Positions 3,806 to 57,237 of a stretch of 64,000 nt of DNA are shown one piece after another. The translations under genes were made by a program, and so were the position numbers. The notes under the pieces are model-generated. The model ran no database searches and was not told the DNA's origin. It worked only from the letters and a program-made list of their open reading frames with translations. Each line of letters starts with the position of its first letter. Positions within the stretch are counted from its first letter, which is position 1. The stretch comes from Escherichia phage vB_Eco_BCPEco_001, in sequence record PV295200.1; one strand, written 5' to 3'.

Positions 3806-3838
3806 GTTTACTTTCTCAGCTTGTTATGGTATTATAAA
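3806..3838 (+). promoter_or_regulatory. T4-type early promoter upstream of 186-aa ORF
   Basis: GTTTAC ... TGGTATTATAAAAT. Confidence 0.65.
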
Positions 3839-5260: not shown

Positions 5261-5779
5261 ATGGCTCACTTTAATGAATGCGCTCATTTGATCGAAGGTG
5301 TTGATAAAGCAACTCGTGCATATACTGAGAATATTATGCACAATATTGACCCATTGCAGGTTATGCTTGATATGCAGCGGTCTTTACAGATTCGTTTGGC
5401 TAATGATAAGCCAGAAACAAATCGTCATCCTGATTCACTTGAAACCGCAGGAGAAGTTCTTGCTTGGCTGCGAAACCAAGACGATTATATCGCAGACGAA
5501 ACTCGCGAGCTATATACTTCTCTTGGTGGTATGAGTAATGGTGAAAAAGAAGCTTCTGCTGTATGGAAACCTTGGAAGAAACGTTATTCTGAAATGCAAT
5601 CCAAGAAAATTCAAGATTTATCTCCTGAAGATCAACTTGAAATTAAATTTGAACTAATTGACCAATTTCACTTTTTCATGAATAAATTTATTGCTCTTGG
5701 AATGTCAGCTGAAGAAATCTTTAAACTTTATTATCTGAAAAATGCTGAAAACTTCGCTCGTCAAGATCGAGGTTATTAA
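5261..5779 (+). CDS. 56: dCTPase/dUTPase gp56
   Basis: N-terminus MAHFNECAHLIEG as T4 gp56; RBS AAGGAAA; ORF-track start 5246 is a TTG. Confidence 0.9.
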   Translation: MAHFNECAHLIEGVDKATRAYTENIMHNIDPLQVMLDMQRSLQIRLANDKPETNRHPDSLETAGEVLAWLRNQDDYIADETRELYTSLGGMSNGEKEASAVWKPWKKRYSEMQSKKIQDLSPEDQLEIKFELIDQFHFFMNKFIALGMSAEEIFKLYYLKNAENFARQDRGY

Positions 5780-5824
5780 TAGCTCGTTTAAATAAACGAC
5801 GACTTAAAAGCCGCGAGAATTTAT

Positions 5825-5832
5825 TATAAATA
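5825..5832 (+). promoter_or_regulatory. Late promoter (-10 TATAAATA) for soc
   Basis: Exact TATAAATA about 30 nt upstream of soc ATG. Confidence 0.65.
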
Positions 5833-5862
5833 ATCATGTAATTTAAATAAAAGGAGAATTAC

Positions 5863-6108
5863 ATGGCTAGTACTCGCGGTTATGTTAATATTAAAACATT
5901 TGAGCAAAAATTAGATGGAAATAAGAAAATTGAAGGAAAGGAAATTTCTGTAGCTTTCCCTCTTTATTCTGACGTTCATAAAATTTCTGGCGCTCATTAC
6001 CAGATATTCCCTTCAGAAAAAGCAGCATATTCTACAGTATATGAAGAAAATCAACGTAATGAATGGATTACTGCAAACGAAGATTTGTGGAAAGTAACTG
6101 GTGAATAA
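5863..6108 (+). CDS. soc: Small outer capsid protein Soc
   Basis: 80-81 aa, MASTRGYVNIKTFEQ... as T4 Soc; late promoter TATAAATA upstream. Confidence 0.85.
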   Translation: MASTRGYVNIKTFEQKLDGNKKIEGKEISVAFPLYSDVHKISGAHYQIFPSEKAAYSTVYEENQRNEWITANEDLWKVTGE

Positions 6109-6115
6109 ATTCAAG

Positions 6116-6139
6116 GACTCCTTCGGGAGTCCTTTTTCA
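6116..6139 (+). terminator. Intrinsic terminator / stabilising hairpin with UUCG tetraloop after soc
   Basis: GGACTCC-TTCG-GGAGTCC then TTTTT; identical copy at 60576. Confidence 0.7.
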
Positions 6140-6147
6140 TTTAAATG

Positions 6148-6177
6148 GTTTACATATCAAAATGAGTATGGTATAAT
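6148..6177 (+). promoter_or_regulatory. T4-type early promoter
   Basis: GTTTAC ... TGGTATAAT. Confidence 0.6.
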
Positions 6178-6203
6178 AGAATTATCTTATAGAGGAGAGC
6201 ACT

Positions 6204-6410
6204 ATGTTAAATCGTTGGATTAAACCAAATGAAGATTTAGATATTATTATTTCACGGCATGTAATGAAGAAATATGAATTGCAACCATGGTCTACAGAAG
6301 TTGTTGTGCATTCATTTATGATGTACGCAGATGGTTCTGTTGAATTTAACGCAGAGATTCGATATGATTATGGTGAGAAGCAGGTAGAATTCAAAAGAGG
6401 TTTTTTGTAA
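6204..6410 (+). CDS. Hypothetical protein (68 aa)
   Basis: ORF after early promoter; compact spacing. Confidence 0.45.
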   Translation: MLNRWIKPNEDLDIIISRHVMKKYELQPWSTEVVVHSFMMYADGSVEFNAEIRYDYGEKQVEFKRGFL

Positions 6411-6739
6411 TGTTTATCTTTAATTGGTTTAAAAATTTCTTTACAGATTTTTTCTCTACGACTCCTGGAGAAGGTGTAGTTCCTATTTCAAATGACTATC
6501 TTCCTTTAACTGTAGTTGAATATGTTTATATGGGAGATGGAACAGTAGAAGCAGTTACTATGACTTATGAAGAAGCCCAAGAATATTATAAAAATCCTTG
6601 GCGCTGGTCAACACCTACATCATCTAATACGCAGTCTAGTTCTGATTCATATGATACTAATGTTCCTGTTCATGTATGGACGGGCGATTCATGTGGAAGT
6701 TCTTGTGATTCTAGTTGTTCATCTACATCTTGTGATTGA
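6410..6739 (+). CDS. Hypothetical protein with Cys/Ser-rich C-terminal tail (109 aa)
   Basis: TAATG coupling to upstream ORF; tail [17 protein letters not shown]. Confidence 0.5.
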
Positions 6740-6747
6740 GGAAAATT

Positions 6748-7233
6748 ATGGAAGCGATTTTGTTTGAAATGTATATTAGCAGTAATAGTTTGTCGTTTGC
6801 TAAAGACGTTCCAATTACCGTAGCAGTAATGATTGATAAGGGTTATTGTGACCCAATGTATCTCGTAGAAAATTTCGTTTCAATGCCAGTTCCAGAAGAT
6901 GCTGAAATAAAACTTAAAAAGATTGGTATTATTGAAACTGTACCAAATATTCCGTTTAGAGCAATTGAAGCATTTACTAAATCAGAATACATTAATGTTA
7001 GCGCAGAACAATATAATGATAAGCCTTTATCTTTTTATTCGTACGATTCAGTATATAGTTGGAAAATAGATAAAGGAAATAAATTTATAATTGCGAGTGA
7101 AGATGCTTTATCATACTTTATTTCTTCTGTATGGAATAGTTTACATCCAAATTTGCTCAAAATTCATGAATTTGATGATGCTCCTACTGTTGTTTTAGGT
7201 AAAATAAATGAAAGCTCTCAAGAAGATTCTTGA
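6748..7233 (+). CDS. Hypothetical protein (161 aa), mrh-region
   Basis: ATG with RBS GAGGAAA; ORF-track start 6736 is TTG. Confidence 0.5.
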
Positions 7234-7411
7234 ATGGTTCAATAGACCAAACTCAATGTATATTGATGATGGTTGGGTTGAACAAGCAAATAAAGAAATG
7301 CAGAACGAATCGGAAGAATGGATGAAATCAATGATTAGCGCTGAGAAAGAAAAGAAATTAGAACGCTCAGCGCTTAAATTGATGAGAGACATCTATGGGG
7401 ATAAATCATGA
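7208..7411 (+). CDS. Hypothetical protein (67 aa)
   Basis: ORF overlapping the end of the previous gene. Confidence 0.35.
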
Positions 7412-7572
7412 ACAAAGATATGACGTTAGAAGAGGCTAAAGCAAAAGCAAATGAAGCACTGGATTTGCTTCTTAAAATCGGCAGTAAAATGATGGAAGAA
7501 AATGAGAAATATATCCAGGAAAACAAAATTCCCGATGGTCCATTAGTAGGCAAAAGGAAATCACATGATTGA
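7408..7572 (+). CDS. Hypothetical small protein (54 aa); not in ORF track
   Basis: ATG 7408, overlaps next gene start (ATGATTGA). Confidence 0.35.
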
Positions 7573-8035
7573 AGTAGCAAAACATTATTCAGTAGAATTC
7601 ATGTCTAAAGAAGGTAAATCAGTAAATACTCTTGGTAAAAAATGCTCATTAATTATTCCTTTAGCAGAAAATCCGGATATTTTAATTAAAGATATAAAAG
7701 AAAGAAAATATCCAGAAAATGTTATTCTAATTATAAAGCATACTGAAGATATTTTGCAGAATACAGATTCACCATTTTCTTCTTCTGAAGCTTTAACTAT
7801 TAAAGGCTATAAAAGAGCTCATGAATATGGTCTTTTTGACATGTTTGAAGACGATAAAGTTAAATTAGCGAGTCAACCTTCTAAAAGTAAAACATTCATT
7901 ATTGAAGATATTAAAGATATAAATGCATTTGTTAGGATGGTCTGGGCTCATTTTGATGTTGGACTACGCTGGAGAATGTCCGAAGAAGAAAGAAAGATTA
8001 TTGAAGCTAATCGTCAATTTGGTTTTTATCGCTAG
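7565..8035 (+). CDS. Hypothetical protein (156 aa)
   Basis: ORF, RBS, between soc and modB. Confidence 0.5.
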
Positions 8036-8043
8036 GAATTAAT

Positions 8044-8226
8044 ATGGATTTATTTGAGATGTTAGAAGATAATCATTCTACGAATAACCAGAATGATTCC
8101 AGTGATTATAAGAAAGAGTACCGTATAGTATTACAGAATTATGGAATTGAAGCCCCAGATGCTCTTCTAGAAGAACTAGCTTCATACCATCTTGACCCTC
8201 CGCCCTGGGCTCCCTGGGCAAAATAA
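8044..8226 (+). CDS. Hypothetical protein (60 aa)
   Basis: ORF with RBS AGGAAT. Confidence 0.4.
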   Translation: MDLFEMLEDNHSTNNQNDSSDYKKEYRIVLQNYGIEAPDALLEELASYHLDPPPWAPWAK

Positions 8227-8237
8227 TTCAAAAAGTT

Positions 8238-8270
8238 GTTTACTTTCCTTTCTAGCAATGATATGATAGC
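8238..8270 (+). promoter_or_regulatory. T4-type early promoter upstream of modB
   Basis: GTTTAC ... TGATATGATAG. Confidence 0.55.
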
Positions 8271-8293
8271 TTCTGAAGTATACGGAGGCTATC

Positions 8294-8917
8294 ATGATTA
8301 TTAATCTTGCAGATGTTGAACAGTTATCTATAAAAGCTGAAAGCGTTGATTTTCAATATGATATGTATAAAAAGGTCTGTGAAAAATTTACTGACTTTGA
8401 GCAGTCAATTCTTTGGCAGTGTATGGAAGCCAAAAAGAATGAAGCTCTTCATCAGCAGTTGAATAAAATCGTTAAAAAGCATTTAACTAAATCACCTTAT
8501 CAGTTATATCGTGGTATATCAAAATCAACAGAAGAACTTATTAAAGATTTACAAGTTGGAGAAGTGTTTTCAACGAATAGAGTAGATTCATTTACTACTA
8601 GTTTGCTCACAGCATGTGGTTTTTCTTATGTTGAGTATTTCACTGAAATAATTTTTCGCTTAAAAACTGATAAAGCTTTTAATTATTCTGACCATATCAG
8701 CGATATTATACTTTCTTCTCCTAATACTGAGTTTAAGTACACGTATGAAGATACTGATGGGCTAGATTCAGAGCGTACTGATAACTTAATGATGATTGTG
8801 CGTGAACAAGAATGGATGATTCCAATTGGAAAGTATAGAATAACTTCTATTTCAAAAGAAAAATTACACGATTCATTTGGAACATTTAAAGTATATGATA
8901 TTGAGGTAGTTGAATGA
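8294..8917 (+). CDS. modB: ADP-ribosyltransferase ModB
   Basis: 207 aa; R (LYRGI), STN and EQEWMIP motifs of R-S-E ADP-ribosyltransferases. Confidence 0.75.
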   Translation: MIINLADVEQLSIKAESVDFQYDMYKKVCEKFTDFEQSILWQCMEAKKNEALHQQLNKIVKKHLTKSPYQLYRGISKSTEELIKDLQVGEVFSTNRVDSFTTSLLTACGFSYVEYFTEIIFRLKTDKAFNYSDHISDIILSSPNTEFKYTYEDTDGLDSERTDNLMMIVREQEWMIPIGKYRITSISKEKLHDSFGTFKVYDIEVVE

Positions 8918-9516
8918 AATACTCAGTAATGCAACTAAAAGATTTTAAAATAAAATCAATGGATGCATCGGTGCGTGCTTCTATTCGTGAAGAATTACTT
9001 TCTGAAGGGTTTAATTTATCTGAAATTGAACTTTTAATTCATTGTATTACTAATAAACCAGATGACCATACTTGGTTAAATGAAATAATCAAATCTCGTT
9101 TGGAACCAAACGATAAACCTCTTTGGAGAGGTGTTCCAGCTGAGACTAAGCAAGTATTAAATCAAGGAATTGATATTATTACATTTGATAAAGTAGTATC
9201 AGCTTCATATGATAAAAATATAGCTCTACATTTTGCTTCCGGTTTAGAGTATAACACACAAGTTATTTTTGAATTCAAAGCTCCTATGGTATTCAATTTC
9301 CAGGAGTATGCTATAAAAGCTCTACGGTGCAAAGAATACAATCCAAACTTTAAGTTTCCGGATAGCCATCGTTATCGTAATATGGAATTAGTTTCAGATG
9401 AACAAGAAGTAATGATACCAGCTGGAAGTGTATTTAGAATTGCAGATAGATATGAGTACAAAAAGTATTCAACATACACTATCTATACTCTTGATTTTGA
9501 AGGATTTAATCTATAA
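8914..9516 (+). CDS. modA: ADP-ribosyltransferase ModA
   Basis: 200 aa; LWRGV, SAS, EQEVMIP motifs; paralog of ModB. Confidence 0.75.
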   Translation: MKYSVMQLKDFKIKSMDASVRASIREELLSEGFNLSEIELLIHCITNKPDDHTWLNEIIKSRLEPNDKPLWRGVPAETKQVLNQGIDIITFDKVVSASYDKNIALHFASGLEYNTQVIFEFKAPMVFNFQEYAIKALRCKEYNPNFKFPDSHRYRNMELVSDEQEVMIPAGSVFRIADRYEYKKYSTYTIYTLDFEGFNL

Positions 9517-9572
9517 TGGAAGGACTTAGATTCATTATACCATGAAAGTTTTAAAGCATTTTTCATAAAGTT

Positions 9573-9606
9573 GTTTACAAGTTAAAGTAAAAATGTTATA
9601 GTATAA
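9573..9606 (+). promoter_or_regulatory. T4-type early promoter upstream of srd
   Basis: GTTTAC ... TGTTATAGTAT. Confidence 0.55.
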
Positions 9607-9638
9607 GTAGTTAACCGTCCGTAAGATGTGAGAAAAAT

Positions 9639-10385
9639 ATGAAGCTGTCTAATAACCAAATTCGTAAAATTAAACGTCGTCTAGAGCATACTCAGGCATC
9701 TGCAAAAAGACGTTCTAAAGATTTTAACTTAGACTTCAATTACATTAAGAACATTTTAGATCAAAAAGTTTGTGCTTACTCGGGAGAACCTTTTGATAAT
9801 CGTATTGAAGGAGAGAAATTATCATTAGAACGTTTTGATAATAACGTTGGATACATTAAAGGGAATGTTATTGCAGTAAAGAAAAAGTATAATACATTTC
9901 GTTCTGATTATACTTTAGAGGAGTTGATTGAAAAGCGTGATTTATTTGCTTTGCGAATTGGTCGTTCATCTGCGAAAAAAGTTCATAAACTAAATTTAGA
10001 TGAAAAGAAATGGGCTAAAATCAAAAAGACTTATAATCAAATTAAAGCTATACAGAAAAAACGTGAAAACCGAATTGAACACATTTCTCAGCTTTCTAAA
10101 TCAAAACAGACATCTGACATTAAGCTAAGGATTATAGCACTCAAAGCTCGTATTGATGGTTCTCGCATAGCAGAAGGCGCTGAAGTTGTTAAATTGAACG
10201 TTCTTCTTAAAGGCTCGGATTGGAAAATTGTGAAAAAGTTGTCAGAAGCAGAAATGCAATATGATATGTGTGATAAAATTATTCAAGGTGTAGAGCGGTA
10301 TCAAAACTTGTCTTTTATTGATAAACTTAAACTGAAAAGAGGATACCCGCTAAATTGTTCAATTTTTAAACTTATCCGAGGATAA
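9639..10385 (+). CDS. srd: Srd-position protein (248 aa)
   Basis: Position between modA and dda.1; size. Confidence 0.5.
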   Translation: MKLSNNQIRKIKRRLEHTQASAKRRSKDFNLDFNYIKNILDQKVCAYSGEPFDNRIEGEKLSLERFDNNVGYIKGNVIAVKKKYNTFRSDYTLEELIEKRDLFALRIGRSSAKKVHKLNLDEKKWAKIKKTYNQIKAIQKKRENRIEHISQLSKSKQTSDIKLRIIALKARIDGSRIAEGAEVVKLNVLLKGSDWKIVKKLSEAEMQYDMCDKIIQGVERYQNLSFIDKLKLKRGYPLNCSIFKLIRG

Positions 10386-13997: not shown

Positions 13998-14543
13998 ATG
14001 AAATTTAATTATAATCCTGAATACATACCAAATCCGGTAGCTAAACTGATTGATTTTGATGTTGTAAGCACTTATGTATGCCCTGTTAAACCACTGGAAA
14101 TTAAGGAACCTACTATGACTACCGCTATTGAAATCGGCAAAACCTACAAACTGGTTGAACCTAAAATTAAAACTAATGCCTTGATTTCTGGTCATAAAAC
14201 TCTGACTGATGTTTTTGGCGAAGGCGAATTTATTGTTGAAGAATTTGCCAAAAGTGAGTGGTTTGACAAATCTTACGTCATCCACGGTCGCCGGTTAGAT
14301 AATAACAAAATAAAGAAAAACCTGGTTTATGAAGATGAGTTCATCCTGTTCCAAGAAGTTGAAGAACAAGACCCTACAGACCTGTTGTGTGCTGCTGTGT
14401 CTATCCGTCGTCCTTTTGATAATCCTATCTGTGGTTGGGTAACAGACCAGTGGATTGAAGATGGTGTTGAGCTTCTGAACGTTGTCCATGCAGGAGATTT
14501 TAGTGTAGTACCTCGTAGTGCGGTGGTAGCTATTTTGAATTAA
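13998..14543 (+). CDS. Hypothetical protein (181 aa), paralog of next ORF
   Basis: Shared C-terminal motif TDQWIEDGVELLNVV. Confidence 0.55.
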   Translation: MKFNYNPEYIPNPVAKLIDFDVVSTYVCPVKPLEIKEPTMTTAIEIGKTYKLVEPKIKTNALISGHKTLTDVFGEGEFIVEEFAKSEWFDKSYVIHGRRLDNNKIKKNLVYEDEFILFQEVEEQDPTDLLCAAVSIRRPFDNPICGWVTDQWIEDGVELLNVVHAGDFSVVPRSAVVAILN

Positions 14544-14545
14544 TA

Positions 14546-14575
14546 GTTTACAAACTCTTGGGACCAGAGTATAAT
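14546..14575 (+). promoter_or_regulatory. T4-type early promoter; -10 in loop of inverted repeat GGGACCA/TGGTCCC
   Basis: GTTTAC ... AGTATAAT. Confidence 0.6.
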
Positions 14576-14619
14576 GGTCCCGTGGAGTATAAAATCTTTT
14601 TAACAAGTGAGAGATAACT

Positions 14620-15117
14620 ATGATTATTAATATTGGTGAAATTGCTCGTGTATCTGATAAATCCCGTTCTAAAGCAGCAGGAAAATTGGTCGAAATTGTA
14701 AGCATTCAGCTTAAACACGGCGTTAAAGATGAAGATTCTGAAGTAAAAGTGCGTATCATTCCTAAAGATGGAAAGTCTAAACCTCAGTTTGGTTATGTTC
14801 GCGCGAAATTTCTTGAATCTGCGTTTTTGAAAGCTGTTCCTGCTAAAGGAATTGAAACGATTGATACTTCGCATGTAGGTGTAGACTTTAAGTGGAAACT
14901 CGGTCAAGCTATCAAGTTCGTTGCTCCTTATGAATTCGAATTTACCGAAGATGAGGAAGGGGTTGTTCAAAAACGCCGTACTCGTGCTATGTGCGCATAC
15001 ATTACCGATCAGTGGGTAGAAGATGGCGTTAAGTTGTACAACGCGGTATTTTTAGGAACATACAAAGTCATTCCTGAAAGTTGGATTAAACACTATAGCA
15101 AAGCTCGCTGTGCATAA
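14620..15117 (+). CDS. Hypothetical protein (165 aa), paralog of previous ORF
   Basis: Shared motif TDQWVEDGVKLYNAV; own early promoter. Confidence 0.55.
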   Translation: MIINIGEIARVSDKSRSKAAGKLVEIVSIQLKHGVKDEDSEVKVRIIPKDGKSKPQFGYVRAKFLESAFLKAVPAKGIETIDTSHVGVDFKWKLGQAIKFVAPYEFEFTEDEEGVVQKRRTRAMCAYITDQWVEDGVKLYNAVFLGTYKVIPESWIKHYSKARCA

Positions 15118-15146
15118 AGTTTAAAATTTTTCATAAAACTATATAC

Positions 15147-15189
15147 ATCAGTAGTTGATTATGGTACTATATCAATATCAACTACTGAT
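15147..15189. repeat. Perfect 13-bp inverted repeat flanking a -10-like TATGGTACTATAT element
   Basis: ATCAGTAGTTGAT ... ATCAACTACTGAT; no GTTTAC -35 upstream. Confidence 0.7.
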
Positions 15190-15287
15190 ACAGAAAACAA
15201 CTTGGAGAATAAAATGGAAATTCGCCAAAGGTGCTGATACTCTTCTGAAACGCATCGCTCCAATGTTTAATTAATGAGGAAATTGTA

Positions 15288-15503
15288 ATGAAACGTAAAA
15301 TTGTTCAGAATTGCACTAATGATGAATTTGAAGATGTATTATTTGATCCAAATTTGGTAGTAGTTCAAAAGGAACATACTAGCAAGTTTACTCACTTGAC
15401 TTCTGTTTATGTGTATGAGAAAGTCGGTGATAAACAGCCAATTTATGGTGTATTTCGTGAAATTACTGAAGACGGCACAACTTACTGGAAGGAAATTTAT
15501 TAA
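15288..15503 (+). CDS. Hypothetical protein (71 aa)
   Basis: ORF with RBS. Confidence 0.45.
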
Positions 15504-15916
15504 TGGCTATTAAATTTGAAGTTAATAAATGGTATCAATTCAAAAATAAACAAGCTCAAGAAAATTTTATTAAAGACCATACTGATAACGGAATCTATGC
15601 GCGGCGTTTAGGTATGGAACCTTTTAAAATTTTAGATGTTGACTATTACGGGCGTCCTACTAAAATTGTGACATCTACTGGCATAGTTGGATATTCATCA
15701 CGAGGTACAGTCATTGACGAAAACTTTATCTGGCTTTCTAGCAACGAAGCCGAGTTCTTTAATGAAGTGGAAAATCCATATCAGGCTGCTGAAGAGCAGG
15801 AAGAGCAAGAACAGATAGAAGATTTTACAGAATTTCCCGTCATGAAAGTTACTATTGAAAATAATGAACAGGCATGGTCCTTGTATCAGATGTTGAAAGC
15901 TCACTTTAAGGAATAA
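15503..15916 (+). CDS. Hypothetical protein (137 aa), acidic
   Basis: ORF, coupled. Confidence 0.5.
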
Positions 15917-15918
15917 TT

Positions 15919-16095
15919 ATGCCGCTTTATGATTATAAATGTCAATCAAAAGACTGTGCAAAAGAATACGAAAAAATCAAGAAAATTTCTGAAAGGGATA
16001 CTGATGTATGTCCTGATTGTCATCGGATTGCTATTCGGTTAGTTTCCGCTCCTAAGCATGTGAATGGCGGATTTTACGACTTGCTTAAAGGGTAA
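15919..16095 (+). CDS. FmdB-like zinc-ribbon protein (58 aa); not in ORF track
   Basis: MPLYDYKC..C...CPDCH: CxxC-x(n)-CxxC zinc ribbon typical of the FmdB family. Confidence 0.5.
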   Translation: MPLYDYKCQSKDCAKEYEKIKKISERDTDVCPDCHRIAIRLVSAPKHVNGGFYDLLKG

Positions 16096-16097
16096 TT

Positions 16098-16358
16098 ATG
16101 AAATATATTAATCGTTCTATTGCAGCATTAGTATTAGCAGTGTCTTTAGTAGGATGTACTGATGCTGATAATGCAACCAAAGTTTTGTCTTCAAGTGGTT
16201 TTACTAATATTGAAATCACTGGATATAATTGGTTCGGTTGCTCTGAAAATGATTTCCAGCATACTGGATTTCGTGCTATTGGACCTACTGGACAGAAAGT
16301 AGAAGGAACCGTGTGTTCTGGGCTGTTCTTTAAGGATTCGACTATCCGTTTTAAATAA
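16098..16358 (+). CDS. Putative lipoprotein (86 aa)
   Basis: Signal peptide with lipobox LVGC. Confidence 0.5.
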   Translation: MKYINRSIAALVLAVSLVGCTDADNATKVLSSSGFTNIEITGYNWFGCSENDFQHTGFRAIGPTGQKVEGTVCSGLFFKDSTIRFK

Positions 16359-16376
16359 AAGGCCTTCGGGCCTTTA
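16359..16376 (+). terminator. UUCG-tetraloop hairpin upstream of gene 39
   Basis: GGCC-TTCG-GGCC then TTT. Confidence 0.55.
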
Positions 16377-16424
16377 GCTTTATGATTACCGGAGTATAAT
16401 ATTCCCGAAACCAAACGAGGATAA

Positions 16425-18245
16425 GTGATGATTAAGAATGAAATTAAAATTCTGAGCGATATTGAACATATCAAAAAGCGTAGTGGCATGTACATTGGCT
16501 CTTCTGCTAATGAAATGCATGAGCGCTTTCTGTTTGGTAAATGGGAAAGTGTTCAGTATGTACCTGGTCTTGTTAAGCTTATTGATGAAATTATCGATAA
16601 CTCAGTAGATGAAGGTATTCGTACTAAGTTTAAATTCGCAAATAAAATTAATGTTACTATTAAAAACAATCAAGTAACAGTTGAAGATAACGGTCGTGGT
16701 ATTCCACAGGCGATGGTTAAAACACCTACCGGTGAAGAAATTCCTGGTCCTGTTGCTGCGTGGACTATTCCAAAAGCAGGTGGTAACTTTGGTGATGATA
16801 AAGAACGCGTCACCGGTGGTATGAATGGTGTTGGTTCTAGTTTGACAAACATTTTTTCTGTGATGTTTGTCGGTGAAACTGGCGATGGTCAAAATAATAT
16901 TGTAGTTCGTTGTTCAAACGGCATGGAAAATAAATCATGGGAAGATATTCCTGGAAAATGGAAAGGAACTCGTGTTACTTTCATTCCTGATTTTATGTCA
17001 TTTGAAACTAATGAGCTGTCCCAAGTTTATCTTGACATTACACTAGATCGTCTCCAGACACTTGCGGTAGTTTATCCTGATATTCAATTTACCTTTAATG
17101 GTAAAAAGGTTCAGGGCAATTTTAAGAAATATGCACGCCAATATGATGAGCATGCTATTGTTCAAGAACAAGAAAATTGTTCTATTGCGGTTGGTCGTTC
17201 ACCGGATGGTTTTCGTCAATTAACATACGTCAATAACATTCATACTAAGAATGGTGGCCATCACATTGACTGTGTTATGGATGATATTTGTGAAGACCTT
17301 ATTCCACAAATCAAACGTAAGTTCAAAATTGATGTGACTAAAGCGCGTGTCAAAGAATGTTTGACTATCGTTATGTTTGTTCGTGATATGAAAAACATGC
17401 GATTTGATTCTCAAACTAAAGAGCGTTTGACTTCTCCATTTGGCGAAATTCGTAGTCATATTCAACTTGACGCTAAAAAGATTTCACGTGCTATTTTGAA
17501 TAATGAAGCAATTTTAATGCCAATTATTGAAGCTGCTTTGGCTCGTAAATTGGCGGCAGAAAAAGCAGCAGAAACTAAAGCGGCTAAAAAGGCTTCTAAA
17601 GCTAAGGTTCATAAACATATCAAAGCGAATCTTTGCGGTAAAGATGCTGACACTACTCTTTTCTTGACTGAGGGTGATTCTGCTATCGGATATCTTATTG
17701 ATGTTCGTGATAAAGAACTTCATGGTGGTTATCCATTGCGCGGTAAAGTTCTCAACAGTTGGGGTATGTCATATGCTGATATGCTTAAAAACAAAGAATT
17801 GTTTGATATTTGCGCAATCACTGGATTAGTTCTTGGTGAAAAAGCCGAAAACTTGAATTATCATAATATTGCTATTATGACCGATGCTGACCACGATGGT
17901 CTAGGAAGCATTTATCCTTCTCTGCTCGGATTTTTTAGTAATTGGCCAGAACTGTTTGAACAAGGAAGAATTCGCTTTGTCAAAACTCCTGTAATCATCG
18001 CTCAGGTCGGTAAAAAACAAGAATGGTTTTATACAGTCGCTGAATATGAGAGTGCTAAAGATGCTCTACCTAAACATAGCATCCGTTATATTAAAGGACT
18101 TGGCTCTTTGGAAAAATCTGAATATCGTGAGATGATTCAAAACCCAGTATATGATGTTGTTAAACTTCCTGAGAACTGGAAAGAGCTTTTTGAAATGCTC
18201 ATGGGAGATAATGCTGACCTTCGTAAAGAATGGATGAGCCAGTAG
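16425..18245 (+). CDS. 39: DNA topoisomerase II large (GyrB-like ATPase) subunit, uninterrupted gene 39 (equivalent to fused T4 39+60)
   Basis: 606 aa; GHKL ATPase and TOPRIM motifs; no gene 60 split. Confidence 0.92.
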   Translation: MMIKNEIKILSDIEHIKKRSGMYIGSSANEMHERFLFGKWESVQYVPGLVKLIDEIIDNSVDEGIRTKFKFANKINVTIKNNQVTVEDNGRGIPQAMVKTPTGEEIPGPVAAWTIPKAGGNFGDDKERVTGGMNGVGSSLTNIFSVMFVGETGDGQNNIVVRCSNGMENKSWEDIPGKWKGTRVTFIPDFMSFETNELSQVYLDITLDRLQTLAVVYPDIQFTFNGKKVQGNFKKYARQYDEHAIVQEQENCSIAVGRSPDGFRQLTYVNNIHTKNGGHHIDCVMDDICEDLIPQIKRKFKIDVTKARVKECLTIVMFVRDMKNMRFDSQTKERLTSPFGEIRSHIQLDAKKISRAILNNEAILMPIIEAALARKLAAEKAAETKAAKKASKAKVHKHIKANLCGKDADTTLFLTEGDSAIGYLIDVRDKELHGGYPLRGKVLNSWGMSYADMLKNKELFDICAITGLVLGEKAENLNYHNIAIMTDADHDGLGSIYPSLLGFFSNWPELFEQGRIRFVKTPVIIAQVGKKQEWFYTVAEYESAKDALPKHSIRYIKGLGSLEKSEYREMIQNPVYDVVKLPENWKELFEMLMGDNADLRKEWMSQ

Positions 18246-22225: not shown

Positions 22226-22715
22226 CTTGACTAGTGAAATGAAGGTCAAAATTGTTGATACTGCAAGATACTCTTTAAAACAAAACCCAAATCAGGATAA
22301 GGCAGAAGTTATCGAAAGATGCCGTATCGCTGTGTACGCAGAGTTTTTTGTAGCAGATTGGATGAGCGGGTATGTTAACAAAGGTCAAGAAGATGTCGAT
22401 GATCCGTACACATATGCATGGGATGTATTGGCGCATCCAAGATACTGCGGGCTTCGTGTAGAAGTTAAGACACATCAAACTGACTCACGTTGGATTTCGG
22501 TGACAACAGGATGCAGCGGAGAGTATCCATATGGTTCTGGAATAAATCTAGGGCCCATTCTAAATCATCAAGTCGCTGACTGTATAATTATATTCAACAC
22601 TAAAGAAATTCATCCAGGTGTCATCCAATACACTCCGAAGTTCATCGGTGATAGAGAAGACCTTCGTAAGGTTGTAAGAAAAAGCAACTACAGCGGATGG
22701 TATCTTTCCATTTAA
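22158..22715 (+). CDS. denB: Endonuclease IV (DenB), cytosine-DNA specific
   Basis: 185 aa; position after rIIB as in T4. Confidence 0.6.
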   Translation: MQKTNPGLQRLFQIPTFTLSNSDLTSEMKVKIVDTARYSLKQNPNQDKAEVIERCRIAVYAEFFVADWMSGYVNKGQEDVDDPYTYAWDVLAHPRYCGLRVEVKTHQTDSRWISVTTGCSGEYPYGSGINLGPILNHQVADCIIIFNTKEIHPGVIQYTPKFIGDREDLRKVVRKSNYSGWYLSI

Positions 22716-22732
22716 AAAATTTTCACAAAACA

Positions 22733-22763
22733 GTTTACATACCACAAGGACCGTGGTACTATA
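22733..22763 (+). promoter_or_regulatory. T4-type early promoter (cassette copy)
   Basis: GTTTAC ... GTGGTACTATACAACTATCAA. Confidence 0.6.
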
Positions 22764-41162: not shown

Positions 41163-41478
41163 CATTCGTCCGGTCGATGAGACCGGTCTTTCAGAAAAAG
41201 AACTTTCAATTAAGAAAGAAAAGGATGAAATTGCAAAGCTTCTTGACCGCCAAGAAAATGGATTTATTATTGAAAAAATGGTAGAAGAGTTTGGAATGAG
41301 TTATCTTGAAGCTACAACAGCATTCTTAGAAGAAAATTCTATTCCTGAAACTCAATTTGCTAAATTTATTCCTTCGGGTATAATTGAAAAAATTCAGTCA
41401 GAAGCTATTGACGAAAATCTTTTACGTCCTTCTGTTGTTCGTTGTGAAAAAACTAATACATTAGATTTTCTACTATGA
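41140..41478 (+). CDS. 33: Late transcription co-activator gp33
   Basis: 112 aa from ATG 41140; position. Confidence 0.8.
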   Translation: MTQFSLNDIRPVDETGLSEKELSIKKEKDEIAKLLDRQENGFIIEKMVEEFGMSYLEATTAFLEENSIPETQFAKFIPSGIIEKIQSEAIDENLLRPSVVRCEKTNTLDFLL

Positions 41479-42128
41479 TTAAACTCCGCATGCCTGCTGG
41501 TGGTGAAAGATACATTGATGGTAAATCAGTTTATAAATTATACTTAATGATAAAACAACATATGAATGGAAAGTATGATGTTATTAAGTATAATTGGTGC
41601 ATGCGGGTGTCTGATGCCGCTTATCAAAAGCGAAGGGATAAGTATTTTTTCCAGAAGTTATCAGAAAAATATAAATTAAAGGAACTTGCTTTAATTTTTA
41701 TAAGTAATTTGGTTGCTAACCAAGATGCTTGGATTGGTGACATCTCTGACGCTGATGCACTTGTGTTTTATCGTGAATATATCGGACGCTTAAAGCAAAT
41801 TAAATTTAAGTTTGAAGAAGATATTCGCAACATTTATTATTTTAGTAAAAAAGTTGAAGTTTCTGCTTTTAAAGAAATCTTTGAGTATAATCCAAAAGTC
41901 CAATCAAGTTATATTTTTAAACTACTTCAATCGAATATAATTTCGTTTGAAACGTTTATCTTGCTTGATTCGTTTTTAAATATAATTGATAAACACGATG
42001 AACAGACTGATAATTTAGTCTGGAATAATTATTCTATAAAGTTAAAGGCTTATAGAAAAATTTTAAATATTGATTCACAGAAAGCTAAAAGTGTTTTCAT
42101 TGAAACTGTGAAATCTTGTAAGTATTAA
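41475..42128 (+). CDS. 59: Helicase loader gp59
   Basis: 217 aa as T4 gp59; directly upstream of gene 32. Confidence 0.9.
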   Translation: MIKLRMPAGGERYIDGKSVYKLYLMIKQHMNGKYDVIKYNWCMRVSDAAYQKRRDKYFFQKLSEKYKLKELALIFISNLVANQDAWIGDISDADALVFYREYIGRLKQIKFKFEEDIRNIYYFSKKVEVSAFKEIFEYNPKVQSSYIFKLLQSNIISFETFILLDSFLNIIDKHDEQTDNLVWNNYSIKLKAYRKILNIDSQKAKSVFIETVKSCKY

Positions 42129-57206: not shown

Positions 57207-57237
57207 GTTTACTTTACGGTAGAGTTGTGATATTATA
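57207..57237 (+). promoter_or_regulatory. T4-type early promoter; -10 in loop of inverted repeat GGTAGAG/CTCTACC
   Basis: GTTTAC ... TGTGATATTATAG. Confidence 0.6.

Follow-up and report, generated by a model that had tools for sequence, protein, structure and literature searches.

A PeSL-like early-promoter cassette with a hairpin around its -10 element in the motB–cef gap of a T4-like phage

The intergenic element between motB and cef was analysed in a 64,000-nt stretch of the genome of Escherichia phage vB_Eco_BCPEco_001 (record PV295200.1; the whole of this stretch is called the window, and positions refer to its plus strand unless a different genome is named). The element is probably best explained as a conserved PeSL-type cassette with a weakened -35, which would now serve as a secondary promoter for cef and goF and would form a hairpin in read-through transcripts. 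By its sequence it is a T4 early-promoter cassette of an already described kind that lies beside a gene remnant. The gain is incremental and no new class of element is opened, but a T4 stretch left blank by annotation is explained as a constrained promoter/stem-loop cassette followed by a pseudogene stump.

The window belongs to Tequatrovirus, with 93-99% identity to approximately 500 T4-like records; Salmonella phage vB_Sen_BCPSen_003 is 100% identical to it over the query. The element fills a gap of 170 nt between motB (14620-15117; Pfam, E = 6e-99) and cef (15288-15503; Pfam T4_Cef, E = 4.6e-35). The first intact gene 3' of the cassette is cef, which now begins about 110 nt away; its Shine-Dalgarno sequence GAGGA and its start codon ATG (15288-15290) occupy positions 15276-15290, as placed from Pfam and from the annotation of relatives. 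In T4 the motB–cef gap is of equal size and has the palindrome, letter for letter, at 6569-6611 (complementary strand), where it is unannotated in either T4 record. In the text of the papers searched, this gap has no mapped start of transcription, no 3' end of an RNA and no cut by RegB.

Anatomy and family of the cassette

Positions 15110-15230 align over their full length with dispersed early-promoter cassettes. Paralogous copies are found in the window at 22702, 23220, 26370 and 43180, and further copies are T4 PmotA and the e.8 cassettes of RB69 and RB3. BLAST searches with the gap returned several further matches per T4-like genome, including the T4 motA promoter with its annotated -35 and -10 and the region upstream of e.8 in RB3 and RB69. 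The family layout consists of an A/T tract, GTTTACA, a 17-nt spacer, TGGTACTAT, a conserved leader, and GGAG with ATG; in letters it reads TTTAAAAATTTTTTCACAAAAC-GTTTACA-N17 (ending in TGG)-TACTAT-ACAACTATCAACTACyGATACAG...GGAGA..AAAATG. The copy in the motB–cef gap departs from this layout in three places only: the -35, the spacer, and three bases just 3' of the -10, which extend the inner stem of the hairpin described below.

From 5' to 3', the motB stop codon TAA (15115-15117) is followed by an A/T-rich, UP-element-like tract AAGTTTAAAATTTTTCATAAAACT (15115-15140 with the stop codon), which falls opposite the corresponding A/T-rich stretches when the cassettes are aligned. Alignment with the family then places a degenerate -35, ATATACA (15141-15147), opposite the family GTTTACA (hexamer TATACA versus TTTACA), and an extended -10, TGgTACTAT, at 15162-15170 (TGn 15162-15164, hexamer 15165-15170). 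The extended -10 is identical to those of the motA-type promoters at 22733, 23246, 26395 and 43209 and of T4 PmotA. From the usual spacing we infer that the +1 lies at 15177, 7 nt past the -10. The leader, Shine-Dalgarno sequence and ATGGA (15177-15218, 42 nt) are identical to the RB3 e.8 cassette, the identity running from ATCAACTAC through ATGGA, and in RB3 the cassette drives an unrelated ORF. The leader motif ATCAACTACyGATACAG is common to the T4 motA, RB3 e.8 and RB69 e.8 cassettes.

A position weight matrix was trained on the 19 GTTTAC[AT]-N17 promoters of the window. With this matrix the site scored 31.9 bits (leave-one-out median, 29.0 bits) and ranked 18th of 127,846 positions. The sub-scores, each compared with its training median, were 0.4 versus 11.8 bits for the -35, 7.6 versus 7.6 bits for the -10 and 9.1 versus 12.6 bits for the UP tract, and the deficit was judged to be confined to the -35. 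The earlier note, which stated that a GTTTAC -35 is lacking, is to be corrected here, as a -35-like element is present at the correct 17-bp distance: ATATACA agrees with GTTTACA at 5 of 7 positions and is one base off the published T4/PST consensus TTTACW. Measured against the PeSL promoter TTTACW-N17-TAYWAT, TACTAT fits and the spacing is 17 bp, with one mismatch in TATACA and loss of the preceding G. Measured against the canonical T4 early promoter, ATATAC stands at the position aligned with GTTTAC (-36 to -31), and the TGn, the -10 hexamer (T-12, A-11, T-7) and an A/T-rich UP region are all in place. A simple sigma-70 consensus scan left the site uncalled (8/12, threshold 9).

Assignments to other T4 promoter classes were rejected. 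The core TGCTT of a MotA box, which in a middle promoter would have the form (a/t)(a/t)(a/t)TGCTTtA centred at -30, does not occur in 15118-15170, and in the published T4 list the stretch from coordinate 5349 to 10058 is free of middle promoters. A late promoter was dismissed for lack of TATAAATA.

PeSLs are repeated intergenic cassettes with an upstream stop codon in an A/T-rich tract and a strong sigma-70-like promoter (Arbiol et al. 2010, PMC2839356). Their stable stem-loop is in or beside the promoter, often between its -35 and -10 or over the -10, and they end in the Shine-Dalgarno sequence and ATG of the next gene. They were later extended to T4 and PST, with the promoter TTTACW-N17-TAYWAT, and 'degraded' copies were described (Comeau et al. 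2014, PMC4122927). The element fits this description on every structural point save the weakened -35. The motB TAA is directly followed by the A/T tract (AAGTTTAAAATTTTTCATAAAAC); a stable stem-loop (13+5 bp) overlaps the -10, which lies at its top; and the 3' end carries a Shine-Dalgarno sequence and start codon, GGAGAATAAAATG at 15204-15216, with which the 89-codon ORF of relatives begins. The element is also a dispersed repeat with indels and replacements between close relatives, the downstream ORF being kept in 261 records and lost by deletion from all others, and paralogous cassettes being present both in the window and in other phages. The order of parts and the genome-wide repetition are those of PeSLs, and so is the setting, a neighbourhood of small, non-essential early genes whose content changes from one close relative to the next. 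Unlike typical PeSLs, this copy carries two -35 substitutions, and its stem is long (13+5 bp), A/U-rich and free of a U-tract, whereas the RB49 stem-loop with measured terminator activity is G/C-rich. The legend of the PST/T4 figure puts stem-loops just 5' of the promoter (PMC4122927). In this copy, and at several further promoters of the window, the stem-loop instead straddles the -10. With the T4 early promoters of the UP/-35/TGn/-10 kind (PmotA, e.8; Hinton 2010, PMC2988021) the element shares the UP-like tract, TGgTACTAT and the 17-bp spacing; it differs from them in having ATATACA for GTTTACA and a spacer that is the reverse complement of the leader.

Hairpins around -10 elements and their conservation

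The arms reported in the earlier note, ATCAGTAGTTGAT (15147-15159) and ATCAACTACTGAT (15177-15189), are exact reverse complements around TATGGTACTATATCAAT. A repeat search widened them to 20 nt with a loop of 3 nt, giving a 13-bp stem, a 2x2 internal loop and a further 5 bp (one G.T), i.e., a near-continuous hairpin of 43 nt in which 36 nt are paired. The 13-bp stem contains only 4 G-C pairs. The inner stem pairs 15162-15166 with 15170-15174 around the loop CTA (15167-15169), which places the extended -10 at the hairpin top. The left arm lies in the spacer between -35 and -10 and is particular to this copy, the spacers of the paralogous cassettes being unrelated to it; the right arm begins at the predicted +1 and lies within the family-conserved leader. 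In this copy the spacer is the reverse complement of the family leader, so that an interrupted hairpin of 18 bp carries the -10 at its top. It is a reasonable guess that the left arm was made by a templated strand-switch mutation in the spacer. The sequence GTTTACATCAGTAGT, found 5' of the phrog_3720 homolog in KPV15 (Jiaodavirus), was considered as an ancestral left arm and rejected, as the spacers of other Jiaodaviruses differ.

With loops of up to 40 nt allowed, perfect 13-bp inverted repeats were expected 0.125 times per window and occurred at least once in 12% of Markov simulations; two were observed. Taken alone, the perfect repeat is only modestly unusual. The folded hairpin, unlike the bare repeat, is exceptional: as DNA its energy is -11.5 kcal/mol (z = -5.5), and as RNA it is -20.1 kcal/mol, a value reached by none of 380 spacer/leader chimeras. 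The hairpin also appears in the minimum-energy RNA fold of the whole gap (z = -3.3), and of the hairpins that straddle a -10 in T4-type early promoters it is the longest.

Of 497 full-length matches in the phage collection, 479 carry the 43-nt palindrome without a single change. Two of the variants were inspected: one, in phage vB_SsoM_113, replaces A by G in the left arm and gives G.U in the RNA, and the other changes the penultimate pair. Among 10 orthologs of the deletion type, variable columns numbered 0/43 in the palindrome, a figure that rests on few independent events, the divergence of Tequatrovirus being low. The A/T tract and -35-like box had 3/31 (all in the T-run), the leader up to the ATG 6/29 (20.7%), the stump 14/62 (22.6%) and the cef Shine-Dalgarno segment 3/16 (18.8%). 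In a set of 17 orthologs, the -35-like ATATACA was unchanged in all, as were the palindrome and the -10, and the length of the T-run was the sole polymorphism of the A/T tract. On these alignments the core is shown to be under purifying selection. The frozen loop, -10 and -35-like box fit a promoter with a hairpin better than a hairpin alone.

Weaker palindromes had been noticed around other promoters of the window, and these are real: perfect arms of 9 bp at 1145, 7 bp at 14546 and 7 bp at 57207, to which 54211 (9 bp) and 60624 (7 bp) can be added. Perfect straddling arms of at least 7 bp were present at 5/29 promoter-like sites and in 2.5% of cross-pairs (binomial P ~6e-4, an estimate), and 8/20 window promoters folded as RNA to -15 kcal/mol or below, as did 2.1% of spacer/leader chimeras. 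The straddling repeats elsewhere in the genome have unrelated sequences (ACAAGACTA, CCTCATGTT, GGGACCA and GGTAGAG). The sense strand was the more stable one in 10/10 strong hairpins but also in 82% of the chimeric controls, and the asymmetry between sense and antisense stability is largely one of base composition. At the early promoters at 3806, 13438, 23246 and 54211, the spacer pairs with the downstream Shine-Dalgarno sequence.

Other T4-like genera are represented by IMG/VR contigs (Cef 52-68% identical), in which the gene upstream of cef is directly followed by an intact GTTTAC(A/T) promoter with its -10 enclosed in a hairpin (-17 to -22 kcal/mol). These hairpins have lineage-specific arms (GGTGTAGGAG/CTCCTACACC, GGTAGGAGC/GCTCCTACC and AGGGCTAT/ATAGCCCT); between L021 and L023 the cef-upstream hairpin shows a change from G.U to G-C. 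A promoter with a -10-straddling hairpin 5' of cef is therefore kept across genera in its geometry, not in its sequence. The earlier note had looked to homologous phages with a normal promoter and no palindrome as evidence against its reading; what these genera show is a GTTTAC promoter accompanied by a -10-straddling palindrome. The -10-straddling form of the PeSL architecture is common in Tequatroviruses.

Gene remnant and RegB site downstream of the hairpin

The 7-codon mini-ORF ATGGAAATTCGCCAAAGGTGCTGA of the earlier note is present at 15214-15237 (product MEIRQRC*) and is what remains, shifted in frame, of the 5' end of an 89-codon gene that has been lost. The intact ORF (phrog_3720) was found in e11/2, T2, RB18 and RB3 and in 261 records in all, about half of the relatives. 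It begins with the same start GGAGAATAAAATGGAAA, reads ATGGAAAACTTA...GTAAAATTCGCCAAAGGTGCT... in one frame (e11/2, T2, RB18, RB3 and others) and ends with ...KFAKGAATLLKRIAPLFN; a Pfam search with the 89-aa phrog_3720 protein gave no match. The deletion removed the segment between two A-runs, 209 nt in the window and 208 nt in T4 (by our own count), with the A-run at 15218-15220 as its junction. Through a loss of this length the start of the ORF was joined out of frame to its last ~18 codons, and the 3' remnant ..FAKGADTLLKRIAPMFN* (15221-15274, with its TAA at 15272-15274) can be recognised by comparison with the C-terminus in e11/2. The event was an internal microhomology deletion and not a cassette-to-cassette exchange.

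A leader peptide would be expected to be conserved in length and sequence. The stumps of the deletion type vary (ATGGAAATT, ATGGAAAATT, ATGAATAATT and ATGGATAATT), differing in frame, length and the context of the start as well as in A-run length, substitutions and indels; that of T4 has 11 codons, and in YUEEL01 and Shinka the GGAG has become GAAG. A coding function of the mini-ORF was rejected in view of this lack of conservation among relatives, and the stump is a pseudogene remnant and not a leader peptide. The possibility that the 89-aa ORF is an e.8 paralog, cassette and ORF having moved together from the e.8 locus, was likewise rejected (BLASTP E = 2.7; phrog_3720 versus phrog_2678). 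The term decayed promoter cassette, which the earlier note had offered as one explanation, is apt in that the element is a full-length member of the cassette family and the gene served by it has decayed; it does not suit the core, which is invariant in the 17 orthologs.

GGAGAATAAAA (15204-15214) serves the stump as Shine-Dalgarno sequence and is also an exact match to the 11-nt optimal RegB/S1 cleavage consensus GGAGAAUAAAA (PMC1702504, PMC3014915), which calls for an unstructured GGAG with a 7-nt A-rich tract after it. The site lies 15 nt 3' of the hairpin, and a cut is predicted between 15205 and 15206. In the minimum-energy fold of the gap, UUGGAG is paired with a downstream CUCCAA, which could lower the access of RegB. 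The site resembles the RegB/S1 sites in T4 early leaders in being intergenic, in matching the consensus exactly and in forming the Shine-Dalgarno sequence of a very small ORF. Of 71 intergenic GGAG sequences in T4, 68 were tested for RegB, the three in tRNA stems being omitted (Durand et al. 2006, PMC1702504).

A terminator scan left the hairpin uncalled, and its 3' flank ACAGAAAACAAC contains no U-run. The hairpin has in common with rho-independent terminators that it is stable, intercistronic and on the transcribed strand, and differs from them in being A/U-rich and without a U-tract; classical termination is therefore unlikely. Covariance models from Rfam, run over 14000-16500, gave no match at E <=1.

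Proposed function and alternative explanations

As double-stranded DNA the cassette would still work as a sigma-70 promoter; it would belong to the UP/TGn/-10 class and be less strong than the related copies. For a promoter with a poor -35 accompanied by a UP-like tract, TGn and a good -10, activity is expected to be retained (established sigma-70 promoter classes, review). Transcripts would start at ~15177 and would supply cef, goF and the genes on the way to gene 39; having begun at the right arm, they would be free of the hairpin. Read-through RNA from PmotB would hold both arms and could fold into the hairpin of about -20 kcal/mol, which might act as an attenuator, a pause site or a barrier to 3' exonucleases. 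In the last case the barrier could protect motB mRNA after a RegB cut at GGAGAAUAAAA, 15 nt downstream. The perfect RegB site at this distance therefore favours a 3' barrier or attenuator that would part the fate of motB mRNA from that of cef and goF. From the sequence we infer an active promoter, a role for the hairpin and a RegB cut at this place. The gene first driven by the cassette was the 89-codon ORF (phrog_3720), of which the 208/209-nt deletion at the A-run left the stump in T4 and in this phage.

In the T4 genes e, soc, 49 and I-TevI, a late or middle promoter is placed within an inverted repeat, and the ribosome-binding site is masked by the hairpin. The element resembles this arrangement in that read-through RNA would fold into the hairpin and internally started RNA would be without the 5' arm; it differs in that 15 nt separate the stem from the Shine-Dalgarno sequence.

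Two alternatives would deny the element one or both of these activities. If both the -35 and the gene were simply lost, the cassette would be a dead relic and the palindrome an accident of a templated strand-switch mutation. The -35 sub-score of 0.4 bits against a median of 11.8, the destroyed downstream ORF with its mutated Shine-Dalgarno sequence in some phages, the occurrence of 13-bp inverted repeats by chance in 12% of simulated windows and the 'degraded' PeSLs of the literature (PMC4122927) all agree with such a relic. The explanation is nevertheless unlikely, given a core with 0/43 variable positions and a -35-like box that never varies next to non-coding sequence that varies at ~20%, the identical palindrome in 479/497 genomes, and the recurrence of the promoter-hairpin architecture at this position in other genera, where the arms differ. 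It is conceivable, although the weaker case, that the promoter is inactive and that selection acts solely on the hairpin of motB–cef read-through RNA, as an attenuator, an RNase III-type site or a 3' stabiliser. The stability of the hairpin (-20.1 kcal/mol) and its presence in the minimum-energy fold of the whole gap speak for this, and with 36/43 nt paired most of the invariance could be put down to the stem by itself; the one variant in the left arm, A to G, keeps its pairing as G.U, and the perfect RegB site lies 15 nt 3'. Against a role in RNA only, the unpaired loop, the TGn, the -10 bases and the 16 nt 5' of the stem (TTCATAAAACTATATAC) are invariant too, there is neither an Rfam match nor a U-tract, and the sense preference of 10/10 strong hairpins is shared by 82% of chimeras.

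The remaining alternatives are a protein operator and a structure at the DNA level. A dimeric phage or host protein bound to the two 13-bp half-sites might repress or occlude the promoter; the earlier note had named a protein-binding operator among its options. The perfect symmetry, the distance of 30 bp (about three helical turns) between half-site centres and the strong conservation of the arms would suit an operator. However, the other early promoters of the same genome and the cef promoters of other genera carry unrelated arms and share only the geometry, and the right arm is the family leader, found without the left arm in other cassettes. Shared geometry with lineage-specific arms favours a nucleic-acid structure over a sequence-specific protein site, and the operator is accordingly regarded as highly improbable. 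A cruciform or single-stranded hairpin, acting as a hotspot of recombination or cleavage or as a supercoil-sensitive promoter switch, would be in keeping with a near-continuous, A/T-rich 43-bp palindrome with a 3-nt centre (-11.5 kcal/mol, z = -5.5) and with the mosaic junctions at the cassette edges. This is held to be quite unlikely: no exchange point falls inside the palindrome among the 17 orthologs, the stump deletion lies outside it, and several hairpins of the family need G.T pairs, which favours RNA over a two-sided cruciform.

Beyond the preferred reading of a weakened promoter with a read-through hairpin, -10-straddling hairpins might be a general dual-use device at the RNA and/or DNA level that goes beyond terminators or recombination handles, a generalisation that is improbable. 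At the RNA level, the DNA would be a promoter and the structure in read-through RNA would mark, attenuate, stabilise or translationally silence RNA initiated upstream; at the DNA level, a supercoil-sensitive cruciform would help to switch early promoters off. The motB–cef copy would then have been retained to insulate motB from cef/goF expression despite its impaired -35. For T4, the preferred reading predicts a secondary start at ~6581 (complementary strand) and a RegB cut at 6553/6552.

As a repeated sequence, the cassette could also provide homology for modular recombination. The recombination site proposed in the earlier note is plausible in this PeSL sense, with mosaic boundaries at the cassette edges, but does not account for the stump, the deletion there being an internal microhomology event. 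The motB allele swap in RB3 and Sf25 stops at the cassette edge, and homology resumes at GCATAAAGTTTAAAA.

Boundaries and internal variation of the cassette

The cassette in the motB–cef gap (15118-15287), a PeSL-type early promoter with its stem-loop, coincides at its 5' edge with a mosaic junction in two relatives (window 15110-15125). In the RB3 and Sf25 loci (L031 and L032, at about locus positions 230-260), the 3' end of motB found in the window is replaced by a divergent gene, and nucleotide homology with the window restarts exactly at GCATAAAGTTTAAAA, which is the 5' edge of the cassette. This junction is of the kind that PeSL-mediated exchange would leave. The T-run of the UP-like tract (window 15124-15134) varies from 5 to 11 T across orthologs, which alters the position of the A/T tract with respect to the -35-like box; despite this variation, all sequence from TTCATAAAAC onwards is fixed among the orthologs.

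When the entire gap is folded, the minimum-energy structure pairs UUGGAG (15202-15207), belonging to the Shine-Dalgarno sequence and RegB site of the 7-codon stump ORF, with CUCCAA (15258-15263), which is part of the remnant of the 3' end of the 89-aa ORF. The predicted pairing could be due to chance, or could modulate access of RegB or of the ribosome.

Similar hairpins and cassettes elsewhere

Four early promoters of the window (-35 at 3806, 13438, 23246, and 54211) have a hairpin straddling the -10 element in which the pairing partner of the spacer arm is the downstream gene's Shine-Dalgarno sequence (GAGGA or GGAGG). Because of this pairing, the ribosome-binding site would be hidden in read-through RNA and free in the RNA started at the promoter itself. 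The logic is similar to that known from T4, in which gating is achieved by a late promoter placed within a hairpin.

A homolog of the 89-aa ORF (phrog_3720, 41% identity) was located in the Jiaodavirus Klebsiella phage KPV15 (L034, 800-918), directly after the tRNA cluster and not beside cef. On its 5' side lies an intact GTTTACA cassette that likewise carries GGAGAATAAAATG. The phrog_3720 family is thus found behind similar cassettes at differing genomic positions.

The window has a second perfect inverted repeat of 13 bp, formed by AATTATACTTAAT (41536-41548) and ATTAAGTATAATT (41583-41595) with a loop of 34 nt; it falls within a 217-aa ORF (41475-42128).

Neighbouring genes

The ORF immediately 5' of motB (13998-14543, 181 aa) gave a Pfam motB match (E = 2e-8) that covers only the C-terminal ~37 residues; this ORF is apparently a MotB-like paralog arranged in tandem. 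Its positional counterpart in T4 is motB.1, which is shorter. The topoisomerase large subunit, gp39, is encoded by one 606-aa ORF (window 16425-18245), whereas in T4 an insertion separates gene 39 (about 516 aa) from gene 60; the arrangement in the window phage is therefore unsplit.
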